A stretch of 64,000 nt of DNA from Daphnia carinata (Eukaryota), in NCBI RefSeq assembly GCF_022539665.2, contig NC_081331.1, positions 12,276,001 through 12,340,000 of the forward strand. The letters are read 5' to 3'. The translations under genes were made by a program, and so were the position numbers. Of this stretch, positions 3,298 to 64,000 are shown in pieces (position 1 is the stretch's first letter; the number at the start of each line of letters is the position of its first letter). The notes under the pieces are model-generated. The model did no database searches, was not told the origin of the DNA, and was given only the letters and a program-made list of their open reading frames with translations.

Positions 3298-4735
3298 ATT
3301 ACGATAGTTCAACGAAAGGATGCACCAGTCCTTGGATCCTGGTGTTTGATTGCAGCCAGTCGTAGCAGCCGCTGCTGCAATCGAGGTAGCAACAGCAGTT
3401 GCTGAAGCCCGGCGCCGGTGTAGAGCAGCCCGGTAGCACACCACGGAACTCGTGATTACGGAGGCCGCCAGATTTCAAACGGGGATAATCAGGGTTCTCC
3501 TGGTTTGAATTGGATTTCTATTTGACTATTTTGATTACGTCAGTTCGCAATAAACGGTAATCGTTTTTTTTTGGGCTTTAAAAACAAACTTTCTTGTTCA
3601 GTCCGTATTATGTATAAATTCAGGACTGTTGGAGGTAGAGGTTGTCAAGATGAATGCTACGTGAAAATGCGTTTTGCTACTCGATTTTGTCGTGTCTTTC
3701 TCAGACGTCTTTCGGTCAGAGACTGTCTCTCCTCGTGGCAGTGCCACTTGACTTGTCAAAAGCGAGCTCCTCGAGGCGATTGTAAGATAGAGCCGGAGAG
3801 GGGGGAGAGCAAAGGCGTGGTGTCATTTCAATCAATCCTATTGGCCAAAAATCAAGAGAGCTTTTCTCAGTTTCTCTGTTCTCTCTCCGGATCGCGCGCA
3901 CGCGCTCTCCCATCTGCCAGATTTTCATGAATTTCAATATCGCTTTTCTTTAATTTATATTATTATCTCGCCTCCTATAGCTCGCTTAATTATAACTGAA
4001 AACACAGCCTATTTATTTGTTTGAAAAAGATGAAATGCGTTTGAATTCGACACGCACCCATCACTTGCCGGCTCGTAAAAGTCCGGGAGCGCGGACTCGA
4101 CATCACGTCGTGACCGCGTGAATAAAAAAAAGCCCGCCGTTTACGTCCTACCCATTACATGATTCATTCTATTGTGTAAAAGTATAATCGCCCTTGATCT
4201 CTCTCTCCATTTCGGCAGAAGCACCTTGCCCAACGGCAGTTAAGAAGAACCCACCAAATGATTTAATAGGACAGGGGTTTGTTCGTATCTGTAAAAAAAA
4301 AGGGCGAGGGTCCCACAAGGGCCAACTGGAAAAATTCCGGTGGATTTTATATGGCTGGACCAAAGTCTTTGCACGTGTTGACCCACATTCCGGAATGAAC
4401 AGCCCCCGTTAATGGTCATCCAAAAGAAAGGGCGAGTACATCCAATAAAAACAGGGTAATATAGATAAAACAAAAAACGATTAACTAAAAGGCGATTAAA
4501 GTCGATAAAAGAACAAGTCAAATGAGTGTGCGTATTGAGATCATCACAATTTGATGTACTCTTCCCACCGTTTGACAGAAGCCAGTAGCACCCATCGCTA
4601 TACAAATCAACAGTTTAATTAACAATAATATCAAATACTGGTTTAAATAAAAAGAAAAACATACGTACACAGAATAAAATCGTTCGTGATTTCGAAATAA
4701 AATGAATATCAGGAGCAGACAGGAAAATGATTTTT

Positions 4736-7700
4736 TCACGCTGCCCACATGTCCGAATTTTGAGTTTCTATGCAGACAACTTCAGGCTCACGATTGGCCT
4801 CTGCCACGAGCAGGGCCGTACTGGGCAGACTGATCTTCCTCATTTTACGTCCATTTTTAGCCAACATGATTGATGAAGGGACAGACATAGAGGACAGATT
4901 GTCATTTGTGGCCACCAAACTGCCCGACCGTGGTCTTCCACGAACGGCTTTGACTCGATGGCTTGATGTTAGAGGTTCCAGTTCGTGAGTCTCGCAATGG
5001 ACAGTGGCAATGTTGGGATTAGGATTAGGACAGGAGGTACTGGAAGTTGACAGAGTCGATTCTGACAGTCCGTAACTGTAGACGGTCTTATCGACGTGCG
5101 TCGGACTGTTGGGACAACAACAACGAAAACAATGCGTACAATTGGGGCAGCGGATTTGGGCGCATCCGTTCTGCGGCCCGCAGACTCGCAACATCGACGG
5201 GAGCAAAAGCGTCGAGTAGATCCACGACGTCGCCATGACGACGACGACAAAAGTGCCAATTTGCTGGTAGGCAACGACGCTGGATGGCAGCACGGCCGCT
5301 CCGGCTGAGAGTGTTGTGACGGCCGCCATGGCGATGGGGCTGCTCATCCGCGAAAGGGAAAAGACAACGGCGGATTCACGGTCCGTCTCCTGGGCGCTGA
5401 GCCGGTAGCCGACGGCGTAGTGCAGCGTGAAATCCACCGACAAGCCGACGGCGATGGTGACGGAGACGGATTCGAGGATGTTGAGCTTCCAGCCGAGGAG
5501 GACGAGGACGGCGACCGAGACGAGGACGACGCTGCTGAGGCAGACGACGGAAATGAAGCTGAGCCACAGGTTGCCCGTCGCGCAAATCAAGACTAGCAGA
5601 GCAATAGCCATGGCGAGAGCTATGGCACTGACGGTGCCTTCCGATAAACTGCGTTGAACATCGTAAAAAGCCAAATCGCTCGTGAACCATCCGCCTTTCA
5701 TTCCCAATGGAGCCTTGGCCAACTGCTCGTCCATCCATTGCTCCACTTGGCGATAGAAGTCGTTCATCTCCGTGTACGAAAGAGAGTAGCTGATGTTGCT
5801 GTCGTATTCGATAACGACGGCATCGACCCGCTGAGTCGACTTGGAAAAACGGGGACCTGCTACGCCCGGCAAGAAAAACTGGGCAGGCGTTTCATAAAGA
5901 TCTTTGACGGCCAACACGATACACTCGTTGAATACATCTTCTGCGTAAGGGAACGTCGACGTCTCGCAGCAGGGAGTCCGGTTTCTCCGGTCGAATGAAT
6001 CCTGTTGAATAAAAAGAAAAGTTGAAGATGGATGCAATAAAAGAAACATGTTTACGAGGTTGAATCATGTTTTATACAATAACGGCCTTTCCCCGGTTTT
6101 GCTGGAAAGCGAAGAAAGCCAAACAAAAATTGTTGTTTCTTGAGCCGATCGTGTTACGAAGAACGGACCCTCCTATTTCCATGGCAACACGATCGAGAGA
6201 AAAACCCTACTTTTGCCGATGACGGAAATTAGGGTTCAGACATGTCCCTCGTGGACTTTGCAACTTTACTTGGCCTACGTTGTTCAAAGTTGACGGGTCC
6301 AAAGTACTCCTCCCCGCCTATTTCCAGCAAGAAAGTGAGTAGAGGCGCAATGATTATCGATTCTTCTCAGCTTCCTCTAGAAAATCCTAACAGCTCTGTG
6401 TACGGCATCCCTTTGTAAGGGGCTTGTTCTTCCATCGCAAACAAACGGGAAATTTAGGTTCTCACTTTCTTTTCTCAATTTTTTTTCCCTTTTTTTTATC
6501 TTGCTGTCAAGGGCTAAGGGGTGGGGCGTATCCAAGTCCATTTCTATTTTAAATTACGGAAACAATAGAAATGAAGTATAGGCCGTGAATGGCAAATCAC
6601 CTCACAACGCCTGTCCATCCAAGATTGGAACGTCTCAATGAAACAATTTGGAAGTAACGGGCCGATCATTGGCTGGAAAAATGGTTGATCTCTGATCTCC
6701 TTGCAGAATCGCGAAAGCCATTCTTGAGATTCAGGAGCAGCCATATTGAAAGTAGGATCCAGAACCAATGAGCCTTTGGAAGACGGATCCAAATAGTTGC
6801 CATTATCTTCCGCTGCTACTCCCCACACAAATCGTAACGGCAGTTTGGCCAGCAATTCTGCACGCTGAGACCTTTCAAACCAGAATTCGTGCTTGAATTC
6901 CATATCATATCTGTAATTGAAAAAATTTTTTAATTATTAAAATATTTTTGAATGTTTGGTTTTAACTGTTACCGTTCGAACGGATGGCTGGATGAAAACA
7001 ATTGAAATTCTTTCGTGTCGGGTAATTCCAATTTCGGGTAATGGAATACAATAACTCCAGCAGCGATGGCCAACCCTCCCAAAAGAACAATCCAAAAATC
7101 TAGAATGAAAAATGAATAGTTTGTTAATACGAAAGCGTAATACATTTAAGCATATGAAAACGGACAGCGAAACTTGACCACGATGCAGGGCAATATTTTG
7201 TCGAATGTAATCCGTCCCAGGTCGGAAATGGTACGCCAGCAGCTGCGAAATGAGTTGACAAAAACTGGAGCTGATCGGCCAGTATTTTGACGACAGACGG
7301 GCGAAAAATATTTCTCCGCCAAGAGGACTGAAGCTGGCAGCCAGGATAACATAAAAAGAAAATGGATGGTGACTGTGAGGCCAGCAAAAAGGCTGAAACA
7401 CCGGATGGCTGTCACTGGACAGATGAAGGAAGAGAAAAAAGCCGCTGCTGTTGTCAGCGATGTCACCAACATAGATAGGCCTGCGTGACCTAACGTATCC
7501 ATCACCAATTTAGGAAGTGTTGTTCCATCTTTGTCCAGCTTCGCGCAGCGCCAGACCTTTCAGAACATTGAACAGCAATTTTTTTTTCGTGTAATGAAGG
7601 CGAAAATAATTCATGCGAAAGGAATAGAAATTAAGATTACTCTGACTTAATACCTGGACGTAAACAAAGACGTCGTCGGCTCCTATTCCCACGACGATTA

Positions 7701-18891: not shown

Positions 18892-20393
18892 TTAACGTTT
18901 CCTGTTGCCTCCAGCCAAAATGCTGGCAATCCTGACGAAAATGTTGATAGTGTCCATATAAATTGAAATGGATCTAAAAACAATTCCGTTGAATAAGTCA
19001 CTATTACGAATAACATCACCTAAAGACAAAATTCTTACGCATTAACGGGATCGAATGGTCGAGCAGAATAAGGAGAGTGAACTTCGGCAGCGTGTACAAT
19101 TTTTTGGGTATCGTAAAGCAAGAACGCGGAAAAGAGAACCTTAACAGATAATTTCGATTAAGAATAAAACTAAAATATGTGTCGGTATTTTTCTTATAAA
19201 TTACCAGGCCACCGTAAAGAGCGACGGAATAGAGGCCAGCGCCAAGTGCCGTAGTAGGTGGTAAAAACATGCCTTCGAAAAATCGAAAAAAAATGATGCA
19301 TAAAATGCTTAGATAAAACTTGAAAAGAAGTGACTCACTTCCAAGCGATGCGGCAAAGACGGCGCCAAAACCAATGGCCAAGGGTCCTCCCATGTTCAAA
19401 AATTTCTCACTCGGGGCACAAACAGCTACGGTGGATAAGCCACCAACAATTCCTGCCGTGTACCTAATACCGAAAACAGATTGATTGTACGATAATGATG
19501 CTGAATGTTTTAGGCAATATTTTTTTTTACACTGCAGCACGAAGAAGCAATGGGCCACCTAGAAAACATAACGGGGCAACAACGGCACCTATGACAGCCG
19601 AATGAAGGGCCCAGGCAGCTTGCTTCGACCCGACCCCTGGTTGATAAGGTATACTGCGAACTATCATTCCTGTACCAATCATTGCAGCAATGCTGCCTAA
19701 AATGACCTACATGAATAAACAAGTTACTAATGCTATTTTATTGTTTGGCGCCCCTATATTTGAGACTCTTACCACCCAAGAATTTCCCATTACTGCCTTC
19801 ATAATTACAGGACTGCGAAAGCAGGCCATAGCTGAGGCAGCTGTCAACATTATGGAACCTCCGAAGTACATGTATGTTGTCCTTATCCTATCTTTAACAT
19901 ACTCAGGCCACATCCTGGAAGAGGATCATACAAGAAACAAAAGATATTTTGCATAAACTAAAAAAAAACAAAGGTGACAAAAACCTGGACACACTAACTT
20001 ACACAGATCTATCAATTGCCCCAGGTTCAGAGGCAAATCCTAGTCCATAAAAGCAAAGGGCACCAAGGCCAAGCCCTGATGCACCCAACACTAATCCTTT
20101 GCCAAGACTAAATGCTGCAATGTTGTTGAAAATTTGTTTCAGTTGGTGACAAAGACTAAAAAGGAATGAAATAACAAACACTTACCTCCTTCCCCAGCTG
20201 GAGCCATAGCAATTTCTTTCAGGGAACGGGATCTAGTAGCTCTGCGTGTTAAACTACCACGAGTCTGATTAGTCAATTGCCTTGACGTCAAGCTGTAGAT
20301 ATTTGGCTTTGAGAAAAGCACAGTTGCTTGTTTGAGGGAAGTTTTCCCAACAAAGTTCGTCAAACCACTACGGAGAACGTAGGCCGAAAACAT
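18892..20393 (-). CDS. GHITM: Growth hormone-inducible transmembrane protein (TMBIM5, Bax inhibitor-1 family), mitochondrial
   Basis: Basic presequence, GLGALCFYGLG, WPEYVKDRIRTTYMYFG, YTAGIVGGLSTVAVCAPSEKFLNMGGPL; C-terminus ...LAGGNRKR*. Confidence 0.95.
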
Positions 20394-21113: not shown

Positions 21114-21649
21114 TATTACAATGATTTATATTTTTGTAAGCATTGTAAGTATATATTTGCAAACCATAGAAGAATTTTACAAAATGAAATTGTTAATACG
21201 AAAAGACGTGTACAATTTAACTAAAGAAATGCAAATACTATAATACAATAATACTGCAATATTAATCCCAATAACGCATAGCGCTAGATCGTCGTCCGCT
21301 TCCATAACCTTGAGAACGCCTTTGTTTTCAAGGTAAATAGTTTACTATAAAGTTTTTTATATCAATTTTAACGATTGAACAATGTTTTTTCAAATACATT
21401 AATTTGAAAAATAACCCAAACGAGCCATTTAAAAAAAAATTTCCCCATCAGAAACACAGAAAAAGCGAAATCAGAAGCTTTGGTCCCCCCGGTCATTTGG
21501 CCCTACCATACATAAGAAAGCTTGTTATTTGAATTAAATTCAATTTCCAGCTTTCCAAGTATTAGTGCTCAGTACTAGTATCAAGGTTTAGTTATCAGTG
21601 CTCATTCCAGGCTTTAGTGATCCATCCCAAGTGATTCTTCAAAGCAAAA

Positions 21650-23257
21650 ATGAATCGAGTAATCTTCGGAATTGCTGCGGGAGTGTCTGCCTTAACGGTT
21701 TTCCATTGGTATACGGCCCGAAAGCGCGAAGTTATTTCTTCTGCTGAAGTTGACAGTTTGAACGGGAGAAGTTCTGTCAATCCCCATGTCTTGTCCGTCG
21801 ACATCGGTGAAGAATCTTCGACTTCGGGAAACGTTCCAACTGGAGACCGTGAAAATGAGGTTGCCCTGCTCAAGAAGGAAATGTTGAGACTGGAAAAGGA
21901 AAGAGACGAATTCGCTTTGCAAACGCAAAAATTATCCGAACAACTTTTGGAAGAGACATCCCAACGCGAGTATCTGGAAGCGAAGAGCTCGTACCTTCAG
22001 GTGGAAATCGATATTAAAGCACGACTTTTCGAAAATGATCTTGATGATCTTCGAGCCGCCAATCGTGAAGCGATGATTGCAATGCATGATGATTTCTCCA
22101 AACAAAATGTGGCATTGCAGTTGGATAATGCTCGTCTCCGTTGCCAAAACGATTCGGTTTCGAACGATCTGATCAACGTTAGAGCTGAACGAGCCCAAGC
22201 TCTTTTGGAGAATGCCACTCTTGCCGAAGAAGTCGGCGATGTACAATCCAAGTTGCAAGCAGCACTGATCAACGTGCAAGACCTGAAAAAGGCAGCTGAT
22301 TCCAGCGAGAAGGAGCTATTGCAAATCCGTGCTGAACTGGTTACCAGCGCAGCAAGAATTGCGGAACTAGAATCAGTGAACCTTTGCCAGAGCAACAAGC
22401 TTGCGCAATTGGAAATGATCGTCCAAGAACAGAGCAGATCGACTCTCGTGACTTCGGAATCGGAGGAACCTGATGCTGCTCTCGAGAATGAAACGTTGCC
22501 CGTATTGCACGCTCGTGATGAACAGACTGAGGTTGTTGACGAATCTGCAAAGCCATCTTCCCAAGATGACGCGCAGGACGTCGCTACTCCTCCACTCGTG
22601 CAAGAGGCTGCTCCACGCCGTGAAAAGGTTGCTCGTGAACCACAAGTTCCCGTGTTTCCATGTATGGATATCCGCTTTAGGAATCAAGATATTCAAGGAT
22701 ATACGATCGTCATGGATTCGTCAGGTGAACTTCAGGATACCATCAGCCCAAATCAACAACTCGCTGAGGAGTTGAAACCTGTGGCATCACCACCAGCCAA
22801 ACAGGAGGCACCATCTAACGTGACGTCTTGTGCCTTTAAGGTCATCAACGCAGTCGTTGAGCACGAACTATCTGGAAGCTATCAGCTGCTGAACATTGCT
22901 TCGCAATACTACGGCCAGATTATCGGCAAGGAAGGAAAACACGTCAAGGCATTCCAGAAGTCGCATGGCGTAAAGATCATGGTTACGCCTCCAAGAGGGC
23001 CTCACGGTCAAATCCGAGTTACGATTACACAAGGAAACAACGAAGGGCGCCGCACCGTGGCCAAGCAAATTGTCGAATCTCTACCCTCCCTCGTCGAGAT
23101 TCCTTTTGCGTCCTTAGGACGGCTTACACCCCAGCGAAAGAAGCAATTGTGGACCCGCTACTTTGTGGATATCGTTGAAGACGAATCGAGCAAGAAGTGC
23201 GTGTTGCGCGGAAATTTAGGCAACTGTCTGCGCCTTTTCAAGGAGCAGAAAGTCTGA
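21650..23257 (+). CDS. Intronless 535-aa protein: N-terminal membrane anchor, long coiled coil, acidic/Pro linker, KH domain plus a degenerate second KH-like module
   Basis: Single uninterrupted ORF. Anchor VIFGIAAGVSALTVFHWY is followed by ARKR; heptad-rich region about aa 65-260; KH GxxG loop YYGQIIGKEGKHVKAFQKSHGVKIMV. Confidence 0.85.
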   Translation: MNRVIFGIAAGVSALTVFHWYTARKREVISSAEVDSLNGRSSVNPHVLSVDIGEESSTSGNVPTGDRENEVALLKKEMLRLEKERDEFALQTQKLSEQLLEETSQREYLEAKSSYLQVEIDIKARLFENDLDDLRAANREAMIAMHDDFSKQNVALQLDNARLRCQNDSVSNDLINVRAERAQALLENATLAEEVGDVQSKLQAALINVQDLKKAADSSEKELLQIRAELVTSAARIAELESVNLCQSNKLAQLEMIVQEQSRSTLVTSESEEPDAALENETLPVLHARDEQTEVVDESAKPSSQDDAQDVATPPLVQEAAPRREKVAREPQVPVFPCMDIRFRNQDIQGYTIVMDSSGELQDTISPNQQLAEELKPVASPPAKQEAPSNVTSCAFKVINAVVEHELSGSYQLLNIASQYYGQIIGKEGKHVKAFQKSHGVKIMVTPPRGPHGQIRVTITQGNNEGRRTVAKQIVESLPSLVEIPFASLGRLTPQRKKQLWTRYFVDIVEDESSKKCVLRGNLGNCLRLFKEQKV

Positions 23258-35309: not shown

Positions 35310-38136
35310 TTAATATTTCTTGTCGTACAACACAATGGCGAATGTCCGAGATGGGTCATAGATTACATTAAATGATCGCCCTAAGATAAGGGGATAAAAA
35401 TTTTAATTTCGGTAAAAAGTACATTTTAAAAATGTAATAAAAATCCCACCTGTGAGTTCGGGGATGTTTGTTAGGGTGTAAACTGGTTTTGCTGGGGTCA
35501 TCAATTCTTTGCGTAAGCGTCGGCCAATATCTTTTGCTGGATGCCAACCGGATCGACTAACAAAATACAGCTACATTATTTTTATTTATCAACGTCAAGT
35601 TTAGCTATGGATAACCTGGTAGAAACTGCTTGATTTTGGGAAGTAATGGTTGCTATCTCTACAGGTAAATCGTAATCGATGATTCGGTGTTGTCCGGTTT
35701 CTGTATTCCAGGCGAAGAAAACGCTGGCTTGACACAGACTTCGTTGCATTTTCCTGTACAAACCAGCAGGTTTACTGTAACTAGCTTTCGCTTTGGAAAA
35801 CGAAAACAAAACGTAGGCAACTAACTGATTGGTCTGAGGTACATCGGCTTCAACGAGCATGTAAGCTGCTGCAACAACGTCATTTGTTTCCAGACACAGA
35901 TCAATAATCTCAACGTTGAAATCGCTGCAAAACCAGTATTTTTTTTGGGCTTGAGTACATAATCGCTGGGCCATTTCATGACAAAACTGTTCCGTGTCAA
36001 TGCTCATCTGCTTAACACAAACGTGCGGAAGCTTCTGTTCTCAGAATTCCAAATCAACCAATAGTTCATTTTAAAAAATTAATTTATAAAATGTAGCATA
36101 CCAGTCGAAAGGCTTTGGCGTTCGAAACCATGGCCATCTGATTGTAGCCAGCTCCATGAACTTCCAACGGTAGTGCGTTATGATAACCTGTGCTGCTACT
36201 CAGGTCATCATCTAAAGTGTGGCAAACATAATTGAGTAGATGGAAATATTAATTGACAAAGTAATTAAACTAACCTTCAATGTCCGTAATAACACTGACT
36301 AGCTCATCATCTACTTCAAAGTACCTTCGCTGAAATTGAGCGACGCAAGTTGGTGGCTCTGCCAGCTTTGAAGGTTCTCTTTGGAGTTCTATTGGAGGTC
36401 GGGTATCCTCAACTAGTTCTCCTAGTCGGTCCCAATCGGGGGACCGGATAGGGGTGGGGATGTTGGAATTGAACGGTCGCAATACATCATTCGTACCGAC
36501 GGTACAGCTAAAATTCCATTCCCAATCATCATTGACATCTTTGGAACCCGAAACAACTACAAAGGATTGATGCTGCTGCAGCTGTTGCTGTAACTGGTGT
36601 TCGAGATCACGTCTTTTCCGCATTACTTTCAGGGGGATGTTCTCCGTATTTTCATCCGTAAATTCGTACTTTTTGTCGGCCAAACGACGTTTTCGAAACG
36701 CGGAGATCGTTTCACGTGGGAGTTCCGAAGTATCTTCCATGAAATCATACTCTGATTCTTGGTTGGTGCTGTTTGCATGAGGAATAGGGCTTCCGATAGA
36801 TTTTCGTTGACTGCTTGATGAGGTAAAATTCGGCGACATGTTTGGAGTATTGGAAGTCACAGAGGAAGTAGACCGAACGTTGGAAAAAGAGTATGAGCGC
36901 TCGGAGTCCTCTTCCCATTCACGCTGAACAGCTGGTAGTTGCTGTTGATGTCCATCGTCCAGCGAAGCAGGCTGAGACAAGAGAAAATCTTGATCACCGC
37001 TAGACCCATTCGGTGGAAATTCCACTTGAAAAGACAGGACATGTAAGAAGTTGGCGGTGTTGATCACGATCGTGCCGTCGCAGCGTAAAGAAACAGAGGC
37101 GATAAAGGATGGGTAAGGCGGTACGGTTGAATAATTGCTATGGATGGTGTAGCCATGTCTGAGGCAACTAAAGCGAACGCAACTATCCCAGCTTGCAGCC
37201 AAATCTTCGTCTCCAAATGACTGAGCTATCCGGTGGCAATCAGGACAATTCACAGATGGCACTGACGTGACGGTTAAATAACACTCTCTACTTTCACCCT
37301 CGGATTGGATGCTAATGAATAAGGAGAATAAGCCATCCCATTAAAACAGTGAAATTGCAGAAGAATATCACCTGCTTCCATGGACTAGTATACGTGTAGA
37401 GTCACCTGGCCAATAGCACAACACAATTTGCAAAGCCAGATTAACTCCTTGGTCACTAAATAAAGTGACTTCTGCCACCTTGTTGGCTTGCTTGTAAGGC
37501 ACAAAACTCCACCAATGCAGCTTATATCTGTTTTTGAAAATAAACATTATGATGAAACCAGAAGCATTACAGAGTTTTCTAGAAGATGCACACTTACTTG
37601 TGGACCATAGTCAGCAAATTTACTTCCAGCTCAACTGAATGGGTATATGTCAATAAGAATTGGGCACATTTTGAAAATCCAAGAAGAATATGTCTACAAT
37701 CAGAAAATGGCCTGAAATAGTCACTGTCATTTTACAAATTTGGACAAGTTGTCAAAAGCTTACCCTGCTTCCAAGGCTGACAATGGAATTACTTTGTCTA
37801 GTTGAAATATTAGCCGTTCATTCAATCGCCCAAACAATGGAGCTTTGCCTTGTCTATGGCTGTAATTTTCCCACTTCCCCGTTAACTACAAAAAAAAAAA
37901 GAAAGTAAAAATTAGCACTTTATTGCAACATTATACAAAACAAAAATTGGAAACAAACAAAGAAACATTTGTTGGTTAAACATATTATAAAAGTAAAGCT
38001 GTAAAGAAAAATATCTTTATCAGGCTTGTGAGTACAGACTGCATAGAAAAAAATTGTTATGACAAATAAATACTTGTTTTTGGTGAAGTTTATTCAGCAG
38101 GTTCTCAGTAGCTGTTCTCCTTGGCAAATTTGACAT
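35310..38136 (-). CDS. DCAF15: DDB1- and CUL4-associated factor 15, multi-exon
   Basis: FLGFSKCAQFLLTY, YKLHWWSF, CPDC...CLRHGYTIH zinc site, Ser/acidic disordered insert, and a C-terminal DFNVEII...FAWNTETG region. Confidence 0.85.
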
Positions 38137-41871: not shown

Positions 41872-44800
41872 ATGGCAAAATGGAGTGATCCTACACGTTA
41901 CGCCTACGCTTCTTTGTTTGCATTGAGTTTAAACGAACGTTACAGCGAATCGTGTGATCTAGAATTTCGGCAACAATCCTTGCATCGTTTGCTCCAGCAT
42001 CTCAATCTTATGCGGGTAATATAAATATTCTCGTCTTCATTTTGTTTAGATATCATTTTTAAAACCTCCCATCTGGCGGCCAATAATAATAACTCTCGAT
42101 TCATAATTCGGAAAAAAAGTGCGAATCTATGATGCAATTGCTGATGGAAAATGAGACGGGCCACACGAAGGATCCTTACGTGGAAATGTTGCTGGACGAA
42201 CCCGATTTCCATCGCGATGGAACTCGCGTGGTTTACGACGCTTTACAGTGGACTTTAATGAGAGGTATAGAATAATACGAGCTCATTCGTTTATCTTTAC
42301 ACGTATTTTAAAGGGTTTTTAAAATTAAACAATTTTATGACATGCACACATAGGGAAGTATGACGCCCGTATCAGAGTGATCCTTCACGATTGGGCGACT
42401 GAGCTGTTTGGATTAAGCGTCGAGCACTTTGAAATGTTGGAAGACGCCATCGTTCAGAGAGTTAGTAACTTCTCTCCCGGCTCTAAATCTCCGCAGTAAG
42501 TTAAGTGCCTCCTATAAAAAACAAAAAACATAACTTTACATTATGCTCATTACGGCTGTTTCTTTAAATTTTAAACAAAACAAAAACAGGGAGGAAAATG
42601 AGCAAAAAAAGCAAGCGAAAATGAAACAAGCCAAAAAGTACGCTCTCATTGGCGCAGCTTCCGTTGGCGGAGGCGTCCTGCTCGGTCTGACGGGCGGCTT
42701 AGTAGCCCCACTTCTTGGCGCAAGTTTGGCAACTCTCTTTGGTATTGGCTGAAAACGTTTTTGTTTAACTTTAATTTGGTAAAAGACGCGCAGAGAAGCA
42801 ACCAAGTGACGCTCTAAACACGATGAATCGACTAACCAACTTTGCTTCTTTTATGTTTTTAAAATTGGCTCTGGAAGAAGTTCTATCATTTAATTAATGA
42901 ACTTATTAGGTGTGGGTAGTGCAGCAACGGCTGGCAGCGTTGCCGGAGCAGCCGTCGTCGGCTCACTTTTCGGCGCCGCCGGAGCTGGCGTCTCGGGCTA
43001 CAAGATGAACAAGCGAGTGGGTGACGTTGAAGAGTTTTTTTTCGCTCCTCTTTCACCTGGAGAAGGCTCCCGATTGAATGTTACAATCGCCGTTCCTGGT
43101 TGGCTTCCACCAATCACTAGTCGAGGAAGTAACGACGAAGACGGCGAAAAGGGCGACGTCACTGACGACGAAAATAGCGACACGGATGAAGACGAAGCCA
43201 TTCAGCGACAGCGTCTGATGCAACCCTTTGATGGCTTGATTCATTCCAGGGAGCAGTACGGACTGCAGTACGAAACCAAGTATCTGGCAGAAATGGGCCA
43301 AGCAATCGATACCATCTGTAGTATGGCCATTTCGATGGCAGCAACTGAAGTATTAAAAATGACCATCTTTCACGGTATACCATTTCACTTCATTTCTTTT
43401 TAAAGTTTAATTTTGACTTTCTTTTTTGTCCAGGTTTGATCTCGGCAGTGGCTCTTCCCCGCACAGTAAGTTTACTATAATATGTAAAAAAAGAAATATA
43501 TATTTTATCTTTAGGTCATTCCATCTTTTTTATGGATTTGCTTTGGAAACAATAAAAGATCCTTAGTCTGACGTCCATCATCGACAACCCGTGGAACGTT
43601 TGCTGTAACCGGAGCGCTCAGGTTTTTTCCTTTTGTTTATTACGAAACAAGTCTCTCGTTGCCCATCTTTTTTTCTTTCTGCGTTTCGAATTCCCGACTG
43701 CTGCTACCAATGTTTTCTAGGTAAGACGAGCCTTTCATTGCGCACTGGAGTCCGCAACTCTCGATCGATCCCCTTTTTCTTTCACACGCGTGTTGTATAT
43801 ATAAGCTCACGCTCTAAACTTTCCCATTCTTTTATTTCTTTAAAGAGAGAAAAAACAAAAAAGATCTTGATAGTCTATCCGCTTTAATTTTGAAGATCGT
43901 GACTGGTTGTTAGTCGTATTTTCGGAAGGATCGTAGAAAAAAAACAGGAGTGATAACAAAAAAATTCTAAAAATCGCACCCGTTCGTTCCGTTTTCACGT
44001 AAAACTTAATGAGGAAACGCAAGAAGAGAGTGGTTTTGTTATCCGGTTGTATATCTACGGCACGATTCGCTGGGATCTGTTCCAAACTTTTTTTTTTCTG
44101 TCTCTTTCTGTTTTTTTTTATAGTTGGTGACACATTGCGCAAAAATGGAACTTGACGCGTGCCATGATGCCATGCATTCGGAAGTAAAAGAGAGAAAGAA
44201 AAATAGAAACCTTGGAAACAAGGAGAGGAAGGCGGCAACTGTTTTTTGTGCGTCTTCGTTCAGAAATGTATCGGAAATGTCATTTGTTTTTTGTGGTGTC
44301 TAAGAAGAGACGCAGGAACTTGATTGAAATTCGGCAGACTACTAATTATTTTATGTTTATGCGCCTCATTTACTGCATACTTCTAAAACAGTGCTTGTCT
44401 AATTACATAGCGAAGAGTTAAACAAATTTTGATTTTCACAAACTTTAATGAGTATAAAAATATATAGTTTTTTTTCATTTGTTTCAGGTAGGAGAAATGT
44501 TAGCGGAGTCGCTGATGGATGGCAATTTCGGACGTCGACCCGTCACTCTTTGCGGATTCAGCCTTGGTGCTCGTGTAATTTATTTCTGCCTCAAAGTAAT
44601 GAGAATTTATTTTTTTCCCTTCGCCCAAACGCTATTTTATCTCTCTTGTCTGTTTCATTGTCCTTTTTTGTTGTTGTTTCACATCGATCCGACGTGAGTT
44701 TGCCGCCCTTGTCATTCAATTGCCGCACAACCGTACCCTTTCCCGCTTCCTTACACCCGTTTTTAGCCCTTACCTGCCATTTATCTTTTCATTTTTTATT

Positions 44801-50778: not shown

Positions 50779-53700
50779 TCACATTAGACGACATTTGTCC
50801 TTGAGTTTCTCCGACGACGGTCCTGCGCCAGATGTTCCCGGAGGAGCTGATGCGGAACGACTGGCCTTGTTCTTAGAATCCGGCTGAAGTGACATGGCTC
50901 TATTCTTATCCAGACTCAACAGCTCCTTTTGGAGGGGAAAAAATAATAAAAAGTCGTACAAGGTTAAAAGCAACAACATTCATTGTATCGACTTCGCAAG
51001 GGCGGATATCAAGGCAAGAGGAAAACAAAACACATTAGACGAGAATTGTCTTTTTGATCTCGTGTAACTGGAAGTATAACATGCATAGACAGATCTATAA
51101 CCCACAAAGAGCTTTCGAACATACCTGGAAGAGTTCCTTCACATTGTAATTGGTCTTGGCCGAAGTTTCCATAAAGTGGGATGACCACCGGCGTGCCTGC
51201 TCTTCGCCTTCCTTTGCCGTCAGTTCACGCGCCTCCGTTTCGTCGCATTTGTTGCCAACGAGCATCAGAGGCACGTTCTCTAATGAGCCCTTAACAATTG
51301 ACAGGACAGCCAAAAATGTTATAGTTATTTTCTAAAAACTTCTCCATTTCAAGAACTTAAAGATGATTAAAGCAAAATAGTAGGGAATCGCTTTAACGAT
51401 AGCGGAACAAGAAAAAAGTTAAAGGCAATTGTTGCCAAGGCCTACGTTTTATTTCACCTAAAACAAATGCAGAAAAAATAAAAATAATACTTTGATTTCG
51501 CGGATGATTTCCCACGTGGGCTTGAGCTCCTCCAGAGACTGCCTCGACGTGATCGAGTAGACCATGATGAAGGCGTGACCTTTGGAGATGTTCAACCGCT
51601 GCATGGCCGGAAACTGGTGAGAGCCCGTCGTGTCGGTGATCTGAAGCGTGCAGATAGAGTTCTTGTTGCACGTTATCACCTGGACGCCGACGTGATATTT
51701 ACGAGATAAAAAAAAGAAAGAAAGAAATGAATGAGACACATCATTCGTATATGAAAAGAACCTCAGATTAAATGAGGAGTAGCAACGCAGAATAATAAGT
51801 AGATACCCATCAAAATGTGTGTCGCGTCGAGTACGCGAAGAGAAAATACCATTAGTTTAAGGTACAGAGTTTAAGCTTTGTATTTAAAAGATAGGGCAGC
51901 ACTCTATGTAGTCTTTCATCTATGTAATAACAGGTATTTAAACTGGAGTAGTTTTAGTATGCACACGCTCACTGCATCGTGTTTGGCGTGCAAAAAGTGC
52001 TGCCGTGATCGTTTCACCGTGATTAAACGCAGTCGGACGATCACATTTTGAAAAACATTAAGTCATAAATTGAGTCTAACGTTTGAGTGCTGGACTAGAG
52101 CGGCGTAAATCTGTAGAGCACATGCAAGTTAGGTTAAATCATAATTAATACCACCGGATCTTTAGATTCCTTTTTTATGATATCCGCTGTATGCCCTTAC
52201 GCTGAACTATAGCGTATATAATTAAACGCCTAATCATCTCGTCTTATTAATCGGCCTATGATGTACAGTCAACTGCCGTTCATTTATTCTGGACCTACAA
52301 CGTTTAATAATTTCTTTTCGTCGGTCTGATGCGTTCTAGACGTACAAAAGGAAGGAAATCATTTAGCGCTGCTGCCTTTCAAATAATTGATCTCTTGGAA
52401 AAGACGCTTCACAACGCCCACGCAACGAAATGTTGTCTGCCTTGATTGCTGCAAACTAATTCATTCGCCATGTTTATGAATAATATAGGTTTGATACCCA
52501 AATAAGAAATGCTTGGTCAAAGTTGTGTATATTGCATATAGAAATGTCTGGCTCATCTGAACTGGTGCACACAAACGACAGACGAGTAGGAGTAATGCGG
52601 ATGAAACCAATATTCGAATCGTCCGCCTATAGCTACGTATCCATAAGGCATACAAATCAATGATTTGTATTACATTTTTCTTTAAATCTATTTAACATAG
52701 TGCTATAGGTTACGTTCAAACATATCACATCCCTAAACCTATGCATGCACGAAGTTTTATTTTTTCCACCTCTCTCTGAAAAACGGGGAAACAATAAAGC
52801 TATAACTTATATTAATAGTCATCTAAAACAGCTCATTTATGAAATAAAATAAAAATAACGCCAACAGGAAATATCTACATTAAAAGAAGCCGCTCTTCCT
52901 ATATAGGCAGCAGCCTCCAATAGAAATGAAACCTTTTCAAAGCCTAACTATCAACGTTTAAAAAGAACGTATGTGTGAATAGAATCTTTTGTTGGCCTTT
53001 CCAACAAGGCAGAAATTCAATACATAAAAGAATGAAAATTAAGGGGAAAAAAAGGGCTTGATTTCTTTCAATCAATTAGCAGCAAACGTGTGACGTCAGT
53101 TGTTTGGCCCATTTCTCTACATCCAAAATTAAGAAGATTTCAAACATGTTACAAAGCTGCGTCAAGTTTGCAATCCAAAGTTATACAGACACGCTCTGGT
53201 CGATATACGTAGGGGTCTCCATATGTTATTAATTGACAAGTATACGCGTTCGCATGTCTGTACATCGTGAATGAACAAAAGGGTAAGAGAAACTAGGCGC
53301 TCGATCGATTTCCTAAAAAACGGAAGCAGTACATGTACAAAGCATTCAGACGCAATGCATATGACTTACGTATGTAATCAATTGGACGCTATTGGGGATG
53401 ACATCCAGTGGCCCTTATCTTTTTTCATTGAAATACACTTGCAGATGAAGAGGTTATTTAACAAAAAAACATTGAGATAGGGTTTTTAAGTTGGCCGTTG
53501 GCGCATCAGTAAAAAAAAAAATGGCATCATTTTTGCAATTTTATAGCTAAACGAAGGAAACCTATCAATAGAATATATATTTATTTTAAAGTTCAGACGT
53601 GATTGTCCGCGTATTTACGTACAACAAACGTACCATTGCGTTTATAAAGTTTGTTATACATTACACGAATTGCACTAATTGCTGTTCTCCTACATCCGTG

Positions 53701-54751
53701 GCGTAGGCTGACACGCCTTAAAAGGAAATCCGAATTTAAATTGCCATGGCAACCATTCATGACGTAGCAAAAGAAATGTCATATACTATTACGCACACAG
53801 AATCCGTATGTTTCAGGATTAGGTATACTTTCTAAGCCGAGGAAAAAAAATGTATGGAACAAAAAAAAAGAAGCTCAGAATAACGCGTCGGCGCAAAGTG
53901 TTTTCTGGTGTAAGGACCCAATCTCGTTTTGCACACAGCTCGCGTATAGGCACATAAAAAAGAAAATTCAGCTCTCTTATTAAACATGGCGAATATTCCC
54001 ATTTTTCGGGGGGATCGAATATTTACTTCACGTCTGCGTTTATACCATTGGAAGCTATATCAAACATTAGATGACGTCATTGCCAACGAGCAGGATTCAA
54101 ACATACGGACACATCACCACACACAGACACATATACGTTTAAGACTCTTTGTCTTATACTCTTGTTCTCATGAGGATCGTCCTCAACGTTCGATTTTTCC
54201 TTGTGCTCTTTGGTCTCATCAGCACATAGCCCTTGTAGAAAGCTTCGTTCAAAATATTTAAAAAAAGAGCGAAGGCAAGTGGTGCTGCGTAGACGCCCTC
54301 TGGGGTGTGTATCCAGCGGATCAATACCATCCGCAAAGCGTGCGTACACATAGTGAGAGATCAGCCACGCTCTCTACGTGCTGGGCGTGTTGCCTTTCCA
54401 TTCATTTCCAGCAAAAGCCCTCCCTTCCTTTTTCTTGTTAATTCTCTTGTTCGTCTGTTATATAAACTGTTCTAGTTTATTTCTATTCTTAAAAATAAGA
54501 CTCCTCGTCTCCTTGCCGCGAATGAATTAAAATTGTGTTTTGATAAACTAAGAGGATTTACGTGTCATGCGAGACTTGTTATGGATATTTGAATAATAAT
54601 TTTTTCTTTTTACTTGACGGTATGTGTCTTCTACGGTAGGGATATAAGATTCGCGGAAGGTGCCCTTAACGAAGCGGAGTACAAGCGATGATTTGCCAAC
54701 TCCGCCGGCACCGAAGACCACCACCCGATAATCGTTGCTCTGTTCCGGCAT
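50779..54751 (-). CDS. DIRAS2: GTP-binding protein Di-Ras (Ras family), 4 coding exons
   Basis: [74 protein letters not shown] box CRLM*. Vertebrate DIRAS1 and DIRAS2 cannot be distinguished here. Confidence 0.95.
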
Positions 54752-57838: not shown

Positions 57839-58276
57839 TCAATGATAGTATCGATACGAATAGGAAACCAATGGCCGGCTGTAATAAGAATAAGGCCGGT
57901 AATAAGCATAACCACCGTGACCGTAATATCCGCGGTGGTATCCCCAACCGGAGTGGTGAGTTTCTTGTGTTTTCTGATCTACAACGTCAGTTTCCGCCGA
58001 TCTACGGCCGCGCCAGTGTCCGTAAGGAACGCGATAGTAGTCGTAAACGTTGTAACCGTAAGGGTAATAGTAATGATGGCCGTAATAGCGCCGTCCGTGC
58101 CACTCTTGGGCGTCCTGGTCGGAAACAGCTTCCGCCCGTTTCAATTCCACAACAGGAACTGCCAGAGCCAAAAGGAGAAGAACAAAAGAAACCTGGAAGA
58201 TCAAAGCACATTTAATTAGTATAATGATGAAGAAAGAACAAAAAACGCGAAAATTTTAACTCGCCGCGAATTTCAT
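57839..58276 (-). CDS. Secreted Tyr/Gly/His-rich peptide precursor, paralogue A (2 units); exons 58276-58265 and 58192-57839, GC-AG intron
   Basis: MKFA|VSFVLLLLALAVP signal peptide; DQDAQE-WHGRRYYGHH...GHWRGRR-SAETDVVDQKTQE-THHSGWGY...; TATA and Inr upstream. Confidence 0.85.
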
Positions 58277-58313: not shown

Positions 58314-58364
58314 TCAGCTGAGGAACTGATGAGAGTCGAGCCTTTTTCTTGAGCAATTTATACT
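58314..58364 (-). promoter_or_regulatory. TATA box + arthropod initiator of paralogue A
   Basis: Minus strand GTATAAATTGC...AAAAGGCTCGA...CATCAGTTCCTCAGCTGA. Confidence 0.75.
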
Positions 58365-59133
58365 CGATCGCTCAATGTCAAGTCGTCCTAAAGCAATACG
58401 AAACCAATACCGGTGATTTTCACACGATCGTCCTTGTAATTAAGTTTTATTGCTTCTTCGCGACACACGGTTATTGCTTCCTCTCGTGAACGGAATCGTG
58501 CAAAACAATTGAATAAGGTGGGGAAAAGCAGATTGCTCTGTTGGATACACGGCACGTACATCGAGACTTTCAATATCTAAATCTTAACAATCGCACTTGT
58601 CTGCATACTTTGCTTCACTGTAATGAAGTACTTTCATATTAGAGAAGTGTTGAAATTACGTAATCACGAAGCAGCAACATATTAAAGGTGAGGAAGATGA
58701 TGTGCTCTTTCAGCATTTTTCAAAAGGAGTGACTACAATCCCATAATATTTGTCCAAGGTTACAGGCAATTTAGCCTTTTGGAATATTTACAATGAATTT
58801 CTGTGTAAATTTAATATTAAAACATTCGACTATAAGGCAACACATTTTTTTGTGGGAGTCAAATATGTACTGAAGATCTTCAAGTAAATGGGTCACAGAT
58901 ACAATGAAAAGGTACATGCCAATAAACAATACGAAAAGAGAAGCAATGGCTCCGAGATAGAGGGTCGAAAAAAAAGTCCTGAGTCACGTGAAAAGTAGAT
59001 AAAAACACAAAGAAACGAAGGAAAAATATGCATTCTGAGTTAAAATAGTAATAATTAAAAAATCCCGCCACGTTCAAACGTCGAATGTCAGTTAACTTTC
59101 GAAACGAGTTCCATCACATCTACCCGAAAGCAC

Positions 59134-61091
59134 TCACGATCGTAACTCTAGAATGTCCAAACTTCCAAGTTGAAATACTTACGTTTTAAAATCAACATTT
59201 ATCCCACATACCTTGAATAGCATTCCTCATAATTTTGCGGGCTCCAAACGAAGTGATTCCCAGACTGATCAAATCTTCGTCGTTCATAGTAGTAAACATC
59301 GCCATGTCGATTTCGTTTTGAAAAAACAGATCTAAATTACATAGCAACAGGCAATATATTAAAGATACACCTCGAAACTTCTAATAATAATTCATACCCG
59401 AATAATGAGCCAAACCGACGGTCTCCAACAGATCAGACAGTCGACGAAATGAGTTCTGATCGAACCGTGAAGCTGTCAGAGAAGCTGGAACGCATGACTC
59501 TATCCATGCAACTACATGAAGGGATGCCAATTAATGTTACTTACTCTAAAAATGCAGATGACAATAAGCATTTGTTCACTTACGTGGTGACGATAACGAT
59601 GCAGAACCAACGCTTTCATCCGCGCTGGACAATGACGGTATTTCAACTACAATTCCACCGAACTGTTGGGACAAAGTATTTTGATGCGATGATGACAATT
59701 CCTTTAGCAACTTCTTCGAGGTTGGTACTATTAAACGAATAAATGACAAGATGAAGTAGAATTTCAATAAAGAAGGCAAACGAAATTTACGGAAATTTTT
59801 GCGGGTAAAATCAAGCGTTTTCCAGGTCTGTGGCAAACTCGGCACGACGGCCTGATTGGTCGGTAGGCCAAAACAGCGTCTTAAAATCTCAAATAAGTTA
59901 CCTAGAGAAAAGAATAGAAAATTAACTTATCGACTGAGGAAATTAAGAAAGACGTACGTGCATTCCATTCGTACGAAGTCAGTCGGATCGTCAAAATATC
60001 CATAACGGAAGGTTCTGCATGGAACAAAACATCGGCTTCTTCAGCTTCGGCCAGAAAGCAACGATTCATACGTTCGGAAGGAATTTGGACCATCAACTGC
60101 ATCGGCAAAAGTCCCTGCCCAATCGTTTGCAAAACGATACAATTCATTCTGTTTTTTAAAAATAGATTTTTCGTAAAATAACTTACGTTCAACATTGTAT
60201 TTGCAATGTAAACGGCATCCAACGAAGAACCCTTTATCCAGATGCAATATTTTTTGGGTAGCTCTTTCAAATGTGATACATCGGGACAACGTATCCCCGC
60301 ACCTGTTACATGTGCGATTTTGTCCACGTGATCACGAACAAGCCACACGTGATCAAACGATGTTTCAATCTTCATCATCATCGAGTCCTTATAAATGTAA
60401 ATTTGGATAAAACATTGCGATTGATCAGATTTTTCACTTCGTTCTTACCAAAGATGTTTGTGTTAAACAGCCGAACGACGTGACGGCTTCCTTAAGATGA
60501 TGGATGCGATACTGTTGACCACGGATGTTCACTTGACAATTGAGGCCATCAATCTTCGGATAAAAACGTAACAGGACTCCGTAGTTTTTGGAGAAATAAT
60601 CGATTAATTGGCCTTGACCTAACGATGAAATCTTTTCTGAGCTGCAATCGACAATGATCTCGACCGGAATATCCATCTGCATTTCAAACGAAAGGAAAAC
60701 GTTTAAGTAAAAAACCAAGGGCAGAATGAATGTGCGAATTTTTATACTCGAATACGTTGACGAGCTTTTTCAAGATTAGGTAATTGTCCCCGAATGACGA
60801 CGTTATTACATTTGGGTTCACCCGTTATGCGATTGCGATCCGGGAAATGAATTCGTGTTCCAGTTTCTTCCATCAAACGATTGATATTCTGTCCCGATCT
60901 GCCAATCAGATGCGAATGGAACGTGTAGCTCACCTCCATGGATAAAGTGGCCGAAAGAGTCTGAAAACATGCAAATGAAATTAAATATAAAATCAGATAA
61001 AGTTAAAATGGAATGAATTTTTCATTATTAATCGGGAAATGAGTACCAATGTGGCTGACGCAGTTCCTTGTTTGAGCGGCTGCTTCGCCAT
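59134..61091 (-). CDS. Shortened, divergent Bicaudal-C-like RNA-binding protein (KH / KH-like domains + C-terminal SAM)
   Basis: MEVSYTFHSHLIGRSGQNINRLMEETGTRIHFPDRNR (BicC KH2-like), GLLPMQL, SYEWNARNLFE, SAM domain LSDLLETVGLAHYSDLFFQNEIDMAMFTTMNDEDLISLGITSFGARKIM; ends ELRS*. In-frame ATG at 61091 in CAACATGG context. Confidence 0.85.
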
Positions 61092-62251
61092 GTTGCGTCC
61101 AGGCAAGAATTGGAGTGAATGAGGTCTGGTGAGGGAAGGTCAAGCCTGAAGAAAGGGGTCGGATTTCTAACCGACGTCCTCAAGGTCAAACGGGGTGAGT
61201 TTGATGGTCGCTGAACTTCGTTTATAACAACACCCCTCTTTCACAGGAGCTTCCCAGTTCCGTTGCCCACGGCTTTGGCTGTGACCTAACAAATCCCCGA
61301 AGACGTGCAAGAGTTAGCAGCTGGCGCACCCTTTCGGCCATCTCTGTCCAGAATCTTTAAGACAGCCGAGTTTCTATTTTAAACCCTCTTTTTCTTTCAC
61401 TTTAACCATTCTTGTTATAGGGAAGAGGACAAACCGACAGCGCTAAGGACATTACTGTCTATTTAACTCTTTGATCTTATTTATTTCTCGGCGTTTTGGT
61501 AATGTCATTACGCAGCTAAATGATCAACGGCTTCTGGTTTCGCGCAGACAGGTGACAGCCAAAGCCAACACGCAAATCAACACGATCGGTGTATGCCCAA
61601 ATGAAATGGACAGTCAATTATGTCGCACGCTATTCGACTAGAAATGGGCAGTGCGTCATGTATCGGGAAAATTGAATAAATATCGTGAAGCTTATAGTGG
61701 TGGTCAGCGGAGTGTGTCACTTCCAGGAACAGAACTTCTTCAACAGCTAAGAGTTGTCCTTCACGGACTATAGCTCGCCACCGCAACTTCATTAGCTCGC
61801 CAATTTGGCATAACACGCTTGGTGGTGCCTAAATGGCAATTTTTACGAGTTATTTTTGTGGCTGGATTGTGTTTGCATCTGTTGACAACGTACACTGTGT
61901 TCGAGGTGCGGTCAAAACAAATGGCTCAACAAATGACTGAGAAAATACAACTGACGCGGAAAAATAAGACAAGATTAGTGGGAAAATGCATACTATTTTT
62001 TTTGCTTTAATCATTTTGTTGATTTTCTGTTTAGTTTTTCCCAACAGTTTTCGAGTACTTTGCAGTAGCGGCTCGTACGATGTCATTTGATGGGAGTAGT
62101 ATACATCTTGTTTGGAGCACACTCTTTCAGGCGTGTGAAAATTTAATATTTTCTCATTTACGCAATTTGGAAACAAATAAAAATCCAAGACCTTTTATTA
62201 GCTATTTTACTGTTTTCTATCCAATTGCCCAGGATCGGCATTGAACGTTCA

Positions 62252-62302
62252 AGTATAAATAGCCGGATAAAAGGCGTCGATTAGCATCAGTTCCTCAACT
62301 GA
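62252..62302 (+). promoter_or_regulatory. TATA box + initiator of paralogue B
   Basis: GTATAAATAGC...AAAAGGCGTCGA...CATCAGTTCCTCAACTGA, aligning with the paralogue A promoter. Confidence 0.75.
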
Positions 62303-62336: not shown

Positions 62337-62978
62337 ATGAATTTGATGGTAAGTTGACTCGCATTTGAGTTTTCACCACAACCCAAATTATCTTTGGTGA
62401 TTATGTCTTGCATTACTTTGTACGGATTGCAGATTTTCCTGGCATCTATCTTGGCCGTTGCCGTCGCCAACGGAGCAAATTCGATAAAGGACACCAACAT
62501 TCAAGTTTCACCTGATCAAGACGTCGCTGAATTCTACCGCCGAGGATTTTATGGCGGATATGGGGGCCACTGGCGCGGACGTCGATCAGCAGAGGAAGCG
62601 AAATCGGAATTAGAGGCTAGCGTTGAAAGTGGCAATGATCAAGAAGCCAGCGAATATTATGCCAATCGTTTTTATGGTAATTATGGCCACCCTTCATATT
62701 ACAGTCGATATGGAAGTTGGCGTGGTCGTCGTTCAACCGGAGAGGTAAAACCGGAAATAGAGCCCAACTTTGAAGTAGTTGCTGATCAGGAAGCCAATGA
62801 ATTTCGCCGTGGCTATTACGGAGGACACCACGGATATTGGCGTGGACGTAGGTCGGCTGATGAAAACGCTAATACCCTTCAAATCGAACCGGATCAAGAC
62901 ATGAACGAGAATGTCAGACGTGGCTATTACGGTCATTCTTACGGTAGATACGGATCCTGGTACGGTAGACATTGGTAG
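62337..62978 (+). CDS. Secreted Tyr/Gly/His/Arg-rich multi-peptide precursor, paralogue B (4 units); exons 62337-62348 and 62433-62978
   Basis: MNLM|IFLASILAVAVANGA signal peptide; four DQxxxE-peptide units, three ending in WRGRR-S. Confidence 0.9.
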
Positions 62979-64000
62979 ACTGTGTCGTTTTAAATAACTC
63001 CTTTCCATTACTATGTTTAAGCAAACATGTATTAGCAAGGTTCGCTCCTAATGTACGTCCCCGATAAACGATACCTGATTCACAACTGCATTTATGCCCC
63101 TTCTTTTGGTCTTAACTTCCCAATAAACAATGTTTTTTTCTCACTTGAATGTGCGTTACTCACTTGGAGAGGATAATAGAGATTTAAGGTCCAATACACA
63201 GAAAAGTTATCATGGAATACGATGTTTTGTGTTTTAGTCTTAAGTTCCTAACACCAACTTTGTAATAAGCCTGTCAAAGCCATGTGAGCCAGTTTCCCCA
63301 TAGCTCGTGATTGGCTTTTTATGTTCTGCAAATAGACCACTTCCTTACTAAGAACATATCCATTGGCCTGGTGGAAGTGTTCTGGTTTTGAATGGTATCA
63401 ATGAAGTACGCGGATATTGTCGTGGAGATTGGCGGACACCGGCATATGGCTATACGGTGTGTGATATAAACGTTTAAAAAGGCGATTGGCTTACTTATGA
63501 ATTTGTAAAAATATTTGAAGAAAAGCATACGCCAGGAAGCCGCAACTGATGAACGTAACTGACTCACCAAAGTTTTGTCGTTTCTTGGTGTTGGATCACT
63601 TCTGCGAGGCGTTGTCTGCGTTAAAATAATAATAATAATAATACAATAAATAAAGGGGCTCTCAATAATAAAATGATCTAATAATGGAATGGGTAATAAT
63701 AAAAATTCAACATAGAGTCAAATTGTATAGTATCACTCATAAATTAAACGTCATTTATAGATACAGCACATTGAAATCGGAATTGCGCTTCATAGCAGCC
63801 AATTAATTGGCTGCCCGCAACCCTGAAATTCATGTAATTAAAGCCAAGTAACATCACTATTTGCTTCTTATGTTTCACTAAACACTACAAAGAATAAACA
63901 TTTATAGTTGACCGCAAAAACCATTAAGCGAAACTCAGGGTCGAGCATTTTGAGATTACGATCTGCAATGGATTCGTTTTGAAACTAAACCTCTTTATAG

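Follow-up and report, generated by a model that had tools for sequence, protein, structure and literature searches.

Armadillidins (H, CE, and PP) are linear, Cys-free, cationic peptides of terrestrial isopod crustaceans that are rich in Gly, Arg, Tyr, and His, and many of them end in YR-G or YR-amide. Each armadillidin gene encodes one peptide of 46–59 aa, with three to seven GGGX repeats and approximately 50% Gly, behind a conserved 19-aa signal rich in Ala and Phe. In the available part of the source these peptides are reported only in Oniscidea and are defined also by antibacterial activity and storage in haemocytes; CE and PP, which are Gly/Tyr/Arg-rich and end in YR-G, inhibit Micrococcus at 4.75 µM, and 8 of 10 strains were unaffected by CE at the maximum dose (PMC7017220). 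Armadillidin H is described as membranolytic and permeabilises membranes (PMC5031766). The Gly-rich arthropod antimicrobials serrulin, acanthoscurrins, and ctenidins are amidated (PMC6784228), and furin-cut immune precursors that carry several peptides are known from Baramicin and apidaecin (PMC8423362). Daphnia, a main model of host-parasite coevolution, possesses Toll and Imd genes, yet no antimicrobial peptides are reported as recovered in the available part of PMC2685406, and this gap was stated again in 2025 (bioRxiv 2025.03.28.645445).

The window analysed here, to which all positions refer unless a locus is named, is a stretch of 64,000 nt from Daphnia carinata (GCF_022539665.2, contig NC_081331.1, positions 12,276,001–12,340,000, forward strand). 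It contains a real, spliced gene of an uncharacterised multi-gene family of Daphnia, here called gene A (62337–62978, + strand), which encodes 185 aa. There is no straight-through translation of 62337–62978. A TATA box (62254–62259, +) and an initiator-like TCAGT (62287–62291, +) precede the coding part of exon 1, which consists of four codons from the ATG (62337–62348, +). An 84-nt GT-AG intron of phase 0 (62349–62432, +), whose AG acceptor ending at 62432 restores the frame and which is also apparent from contigs of relatives, leads to exon 2 (62433–62978, +), which holds the remaining hydrophobic leader and four spacer/peptide units and is 86% identical to D. sinensis GHT06_009187. An AATAAA polyadenylation signal lies at 63122–63127 (+), and contigs of relatives reach approximately 63094 and further. 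The start at 62337 proposed in the initial annotation is correct, although only through the intron and not by a continuous frame. In seven of eight related-species runs, each from a different study, 62348 is joined to the start of exon 2, and the eighth has exon 2 only. These contigs also skip the introns of the neighbouring gene, so the runs behave as cDNA. Transcripts of gene A thus appear in related-species assemblies from all 8 studies, the runs having been picked because the gene is present in them; the contigs are mostly less than 90% alike, the label "RNA" is a guess, and contig depths are unsuited to ranking expression. Among the runs listed in a run search for gene A, no RNA run carried the gene, with shares of only 0.06–0.08.

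The gene A protein is predicted to start with a hydrophobic leader, recognised by hydropathy only, which is the part of the proposed signal peptide that stands. It is followed by four units, each composed of a spacer ending in DQ[DE]xxE and a peptide of 14–23 aa. The four DQxxxE motifs lie at 62514–62531, 62637–62654, 62784–62801, and 62892–62909 (all +); the first also agrees with the family profile, and an N-terminal cut would follow its Glu. Peptides 1–3 end in WR-G-RR-S, and the corresponding RGRR furin-type sites occupy 62574–62585 (including the amidation Gly, in line with the family pattern), 62721–62732, and 62841–62852 (all +). The predicted products are three putative WR-amides of charge +3, with lengths of 15 aa (62532–62576), 23 aa (62655–62723), and 14 aa (62802–62843), and a fourth peptide of 22 aa and charge +4 (62910–62975; all +), which would have a free C-terminal Trp. 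All four are Cys-free and rich in Gly, Tyr, Arg, His, and Trp, with a pI of 9.6–10.3 and 20–30% Tyr. In unmodified form, peptides 1–4 would have average masses of 1879, 2928, 1812, and 2778 Da, which amidation would lower by about 1 Da. Their Gly content ranges from 13 to 33%, exceeding 17% in three of the four, without any GGG, and amounts to 13% in the whole mature precursor. The spacers have net charges of −6 to −7, except for the first one (−3 counting the leader), and the predicted mature precursor has a net charge of −3. When the exon-2 protein was shuffled 100,000 times, at least three RX[KR]R sites arose in 30 shuffles and at least two DQ[DE]xxE motifs in 1, compared with three sites and four motifs in gene A. 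Since shuffled proteins almost never match these counts, the pattern of gene A is not due to chance. The four-unit anatomy, the DQ[D/E]xxE spacer ends, and the three WR-G-RR-S sites are exactly as initially annotated, but the acidity of the first spacer is slight and the putatively amidated set comprises three peptides, the fourth ending at the stop codon without an amidation signal.

In composition, the predicted peptides share the armadillidin traits listed above: they stem from a crustacean, are cationic with more than 10% Arg, and have a C-terminal amidation Gly, present as a signal. By eye, a YRRGG..FYGG stretch of armadillidin CE resembles gene A peptide 1. However, gene A encodes four short peptides separated by acidic spacers instead of one long peptide, and its products lack GGG and contain far less Gly. 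Membership of gene A in the armadillidins was rejected for the lack of GGGX repeats and for its polyprotein nature, although they are, as judged by this comparison, the closest tested analogue. They are nearer than the nematode NLP-29 group, which had been suggested previously. The nematode NLP-29/31 group likewise comprises secreted, Gly/Tyr-rich peptides, which are antimicrobial, and some relatives of gene A would yield peptides beginning with Gln; but these nematode peptides belong to another phylum, acidic spacers and D[QL]xxxE are peculiar to the Daphnia family, and no nematode-named match appeared in the family searches or in 30 cluster look-ups. Nematode GRSPs are defined by a length of at most 200 aa, a signal peptide, and more than 17% Gly in the mature protein (PMC10506718). 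With its leader, gene A fits in length at 185 aa, but assignment to this class was rejected because of the Gly content of its mature precursor.

In precursor design, gene A is closer to apidaecin and Baramicin A, where tandem peptides also lie between RXRR furin sites behind a leader, and Baramicin IM22, like the gene A peptides, needs a further N-terminal cut by an unknown protease (PMC8423362). No sequence similarity to either was found, and the gene A peptides are Gly/Tyr-rich, not Pro-rich. Moreover, Baramicin is Toll-induced, whereas a κB-like site within 200 bp was found in none of six family promoters. As far as anatomy shows, gene A would resemble a Baramicin-type multi-peptide precursor with armadillidin-like cargo.

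A single-sequence search identified 14 family proteins among 223 candidates. Profile searches gave 33 matches at E-values up to 0.001 among 1.84 billion representatives and, with a wider profile, 22 matches among 7990 scored candidates. When 30 clusters were looked up, 11 carried an organism name, always Daphnia (D. sinensis, D. magna, D. carinata, D. pulex, D. pulicaria, and D. galeata are represented in the family), and 19 were unnamed; low-complexity peptides defeat profile searches, and a range restricted to Daphnia is therefore unproven although all named relatives belong to this genus. Family genes contain 2–5 units. Their locus tags lie next to one another in D. sinensis (009183, 009186, and 009187) and D. 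magna (000824 and 000828), which shows that they are clustered. The D. magna genes span OUZ56_000824–000828, and those of D. pulex include DAPPUDRAFT_330143, 301031, 301465, 244523, and 229768. A pattern scan of DNA returned 14 metagenome loci, of which six are family genes and eight were rejected as non-members. Nothing scored above the Pfam cut-off, either in gene A itself or in 18 members of the family, and this includes R&R and peritrophin-A chitin-binding domains. PDB sequences gave no match, the best ESM Atlas scores (0.77) were at chance level, and none of 65 candidates matched in a search of short proteins (30–53 aa). In databases, members are named "hypothetical" or "uncharacterized" or bear unrelated guesses; misleading names in the clusters of P0005, P0067, and P0107 include dynein heavy chain, DEAD-box helicase 9-like, cabeza-like, hornerin-like, and carbonyl reductase 1.

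No description of the family was found in the openly readable literature by accessions, motifs, or topic terms; among the matches listed for the motifs, only "dlevae" was hit, in unrelated titles. The available parts of the supplements of PMC6668405, PMC5174735, and PMC4514973 contain no family match, and the available main text of a Daphnia single-cell preprint has no passage on it. A table in PMC4991082 contains five of six D. pulex family identifiers without an assigned network function, with values of 0.07–1 in a column that we read as a rhythm p-value (the head row is incomplete). The earlier view of an uncharacterised family was thus borne out, as neither Pfam, PDB, nor the literature provided a match and all named relatives are Daphnia. 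Several members deviate from the common layout. P0004, P0005, and P0006 represent one paralogue with an 82-aa spacer that contains repeated degenerate DQ/DR..E motifs and no peptide between them. A Gly/His/Ser-rich branch (P0067, P0072, and P0098–P0108) combines DLxxAE with sites like RY-G-R and RF-G-R and would yield RY- or RF-amide ends that resemble neuropeptides. The protein P0076 has similar Gly/Tyr-rich W-amide peptides but uses KR sites and separates the peptides by Ala-Asp/Glu-Pro dipeptides, so that its design may be convergent. The family member of locus L006 is accompanied (2266–2538 and 3656–4369, −) by a degenerate-looking unit with DMxxDE and by a secreted Gly/Asn/Pro-rich protein that contains an RTKR site; an arylsulfatase-like gene lies upstream.

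Across 56 family sequences, trimming of the basic residues would expose a Gly at 98 of 103 furin-type sites, in five spellings (G-RR, G-R, G-KR, G-RKRR, and G-RRRR); these sequences are kin, so the sites are not independent. P0076 was excluded from this count for its dipeptide-type spacers, and the terminal YWR-G-stop of locus L007 was excluded from the amidation evidence, as it may be an early stop inside a longer peptide. The Gly tracks the trimmed end and has no fixed position in RXRR, as an amidation signal predicts. At the other end of the peptides, a pattern requiring D and E found 135 instances of D[QL]xxxE (94 with Q, 41 with L), where the next residue is W, N, Q, H, F, S, or Y, with Arg/Tyr/Gly after it, and a looser pattern placed a boundary of this type in 58 of 65 family units. 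The spacers of apidaecin are X-Pro/X-Ala dipeptides. In gene A, such trimming would stop at the first or second dipeptide of the spacers (23, 23, and 19 aa), and this mode of spacer removal was rejected. As X-Pro/X-Ala repeats do not make up the spacers, their removal would require an endoprotease that cleaves after Glu. Compared with its D. sinensis orthologue, gene A differs at 5 of 83 peptide positions and at 15 of 60 spacer positions (Fisher p = 0.0026); the lower rate of change in the peptides indicates that selection acts on them. Taken from these sequence patterns, processing of the precursor into amidated peptides is predicted and highly probable. The family-wide sites strengthen the initial annotation with regard to furin-type cleavage and the amidation Gly, and its call for an additional protease at DQxxxE agrees with the failure of dipeptide trimming; of the likeness to apidaecin, the tandem peptides between RXRR sites stand but the dipeptide trimming does not fit.

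We propose, with a probability of roughly 45%, that gene A is a multi-peptide host-defence precursor whose cationic peptides are most likely antimicrobial. The hydrophobic leader would be removed, a furin-type convertase would cut after RGRR, a carboxypeptidase would trim the Arg residues, and PAM would convert the exposed Gly to an amide, while a Glu-directed endoprotease would cut after D[QL]xxxE. Before cleavage, the acidic spacers would neutralise the peptides within the net negative mature precursor. Once freed, the aromatic peptides of charge +3 to +4 might bind and damage microbial surfaces, like armadillidin H. An antimicrobial role is suggested by the conserved amidation Gly, the conservation of the peptides, the split of charges between spacers and peptides, the absence of Cys from the peptides, and the clustered, apparently lineage-restricted family. 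On the other hand, the gene A peptides are conserved, not hypervariable, the long Gly/Ser/His units of distant members look structural, and the promoters lack κB-like sites. Tentatively, the peptides would be constitutive or moult-timed antimicrobial barrier peptides. Fungal exposure raises the expression of cuticle genes and many unannotated genes in Daphnia (PMC13587834, PMC10375369), and defence and cuticle roles may therefore overlap. It is also plausible, though somewhat less likely, that the family as a whole represents the missing antimicrobial arsenal of Daphnia, made up of clustered "protein operons" with amidated Gly/Tyr/Arg peptides that are silenced by acidic spacers and freed by an undescribed Glu-directed convertase reading D[QL]xxxE. 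The candidate peptides address the reported lack of antimicrobial peptides in this genus, and with lengths of 14–23 aa they are short and cheap to make, so that the question is directly testable.

A structural role is the main rival and nearly as likely. Here, the Tyr/His/Gly-rich peptides or the whole acidic-cationic units would be built into cuticle, ephippium, or an adhesive at moult, through cross-linking via Tyr/DOPA and His or through condensation by charge pairing. The high Tyr content together with His and the terminal Trp fits this role, and the composition of the family seems reminiscent of mussel foot protein 3 (Mfp-3). Like Gly/Tyr-rich cuticle, chorion, and adhesive proteins, gene A encodes a putatively secreted, low-complexity product rich in Gly, Tyr, His, and Arg and has a TATA box, an initiator, and a short first exon. 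A first exon of four codons is typical of cuticle-protein genes. Unlike such proteins, gene A combines acidic spacers in repeated units with an amidation signal that is conserved, and it has no match to Pfam GRP (PF07172), although weak matches to GRP below the cut-off occur in 5 of 18 family members. Conservation of the amidation Gly in five spellings would instead point to soluble bioactive peptides, and gene A was rejected as a chitin-binding cuticle protein (CPR or CPAP) because it lacks such a domain. If the role is structural, amidated and protease-released cuticle or adhesive peptides would be unusual as well. Under either role, D[QL]xxxE points to a processing protease.

Promoters bear on both readings. 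A common TATA-initiator layout was found in six family genes, namely gene A, its paralogue B in the window, and four metagenome loci. TTCAAGGY occurs in four of these six promoters, against 5.4% of the background, in one orientation throughout (and by eye also in L010), a post hoc observation on related promoters. It is absent from genes A and B, where the exact TCAAGGY is also missing. The motif presumably corresponds to an FTZ-F1 half-site, but the full FTZ-F1 consensus was found in none of the six promoters. Control of the FTZ-F1 type would be in line with a structural role at moult and is compatible with defence too; in nematodes, the FTZ-F1 orthologue NHR-25 regulates nlp-29. The Grainyhead-type consensus, also absent from all six promoters, speaks against the structural role. 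In D. magna, ftz-f1 is part of a moulting and cuticle network (PMC5569996). Shared 7-mers were as numerous as in the family promoters in just 4 of 1000 random sets, the test being post hoc and the promoters homologous. A CATTGARCG block closely precedes the TATA box of genes A (62237–62250, +) and B (58366–58376, −) and of L010 and L011, and CGTGTGA occurs in four of six family promoters compared to 2.5% of the background.

A role in the gut, in labral-gland mucus, or in the brood pouch, where the peptides would bind metals, entangle food, or shape the microbiota without killing, is improbable. It would agree with the His/Tyr content, the cationic charge, and the presence of transcripts in assemblies of related species in each of the 8 studies (runs selected for the gene), but GATA sites, present in two of six promoters against 33% of the background, are not enriched. 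Arthropod neuropeptide genes are typically single-copy. Least likely are neuropeptides or hormones, that is, WR-amides acting on GPCRs, which would match the dibasic cleavage, the amidation, the better conservation of peptides than spacers, and the 19 of 135 motifs that would give an N-terminal Gln permitting pyroglutamate, but not the expanded family named only in Daphnia, the peptides of 13–40 aa without a common core except WR, the usually unamidated last unit, the N-terminal cuts away from basic residues, and the lack of any match to a known arthropod family (Pfam, named hits; only WR is shared) or of any paper on such a peptide among the neuropeptide studies listed.

The initial annotation overlooked the wider D[QL]xxxE family and paralogue B (57839–58276, −), which a window scan located approximately 4 kb from gene A. 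Paralogue B encodes 121 aa with two units. Its TATA box (58357–58362, −) and the initiator TCAGT (58325–58329) form a block nearly identical to that of gene A, and exon 1 likewise consists of four codons (58265–58276, −; runs X1 and X10 have a loose end at 58191 that corresponds to exon 1). The 72-nt intron (58193–58264, −) is of the GC-AG type, its donor in the window being GC, not GT, and exon 2 (57839–58192, −) encodes the leader and two units with peptides of 32 and 40 aa and one WR-G-RR site and is 88% identical to D. magna OUZ56_000824. No third family copy was found in the 64-kb window. Between genes A and B lies a Bicaudal-C-like KH gene (58850–61200, −), the introns of which are spliced in relatives. 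In locus L007, a family gene adjoins a similar KH gene (2089–3732, +), and the presence of this neighbour in both places indicates conserved linkage. In the D. sinensis model GHT06_009183, a Ras-like protein is joined to a family member, probably as an artefact of gene modelling; the window has a Ras-family gene at 51089–54751 (−), and no family member was found beside it. Other genes in the window encode MMPL/Patched-like (4739–6064), Bax1-I (19019–19558), KH (21635–23254), DCAF15 (36273–37340), and DUF726 (42894–43400) proteins.
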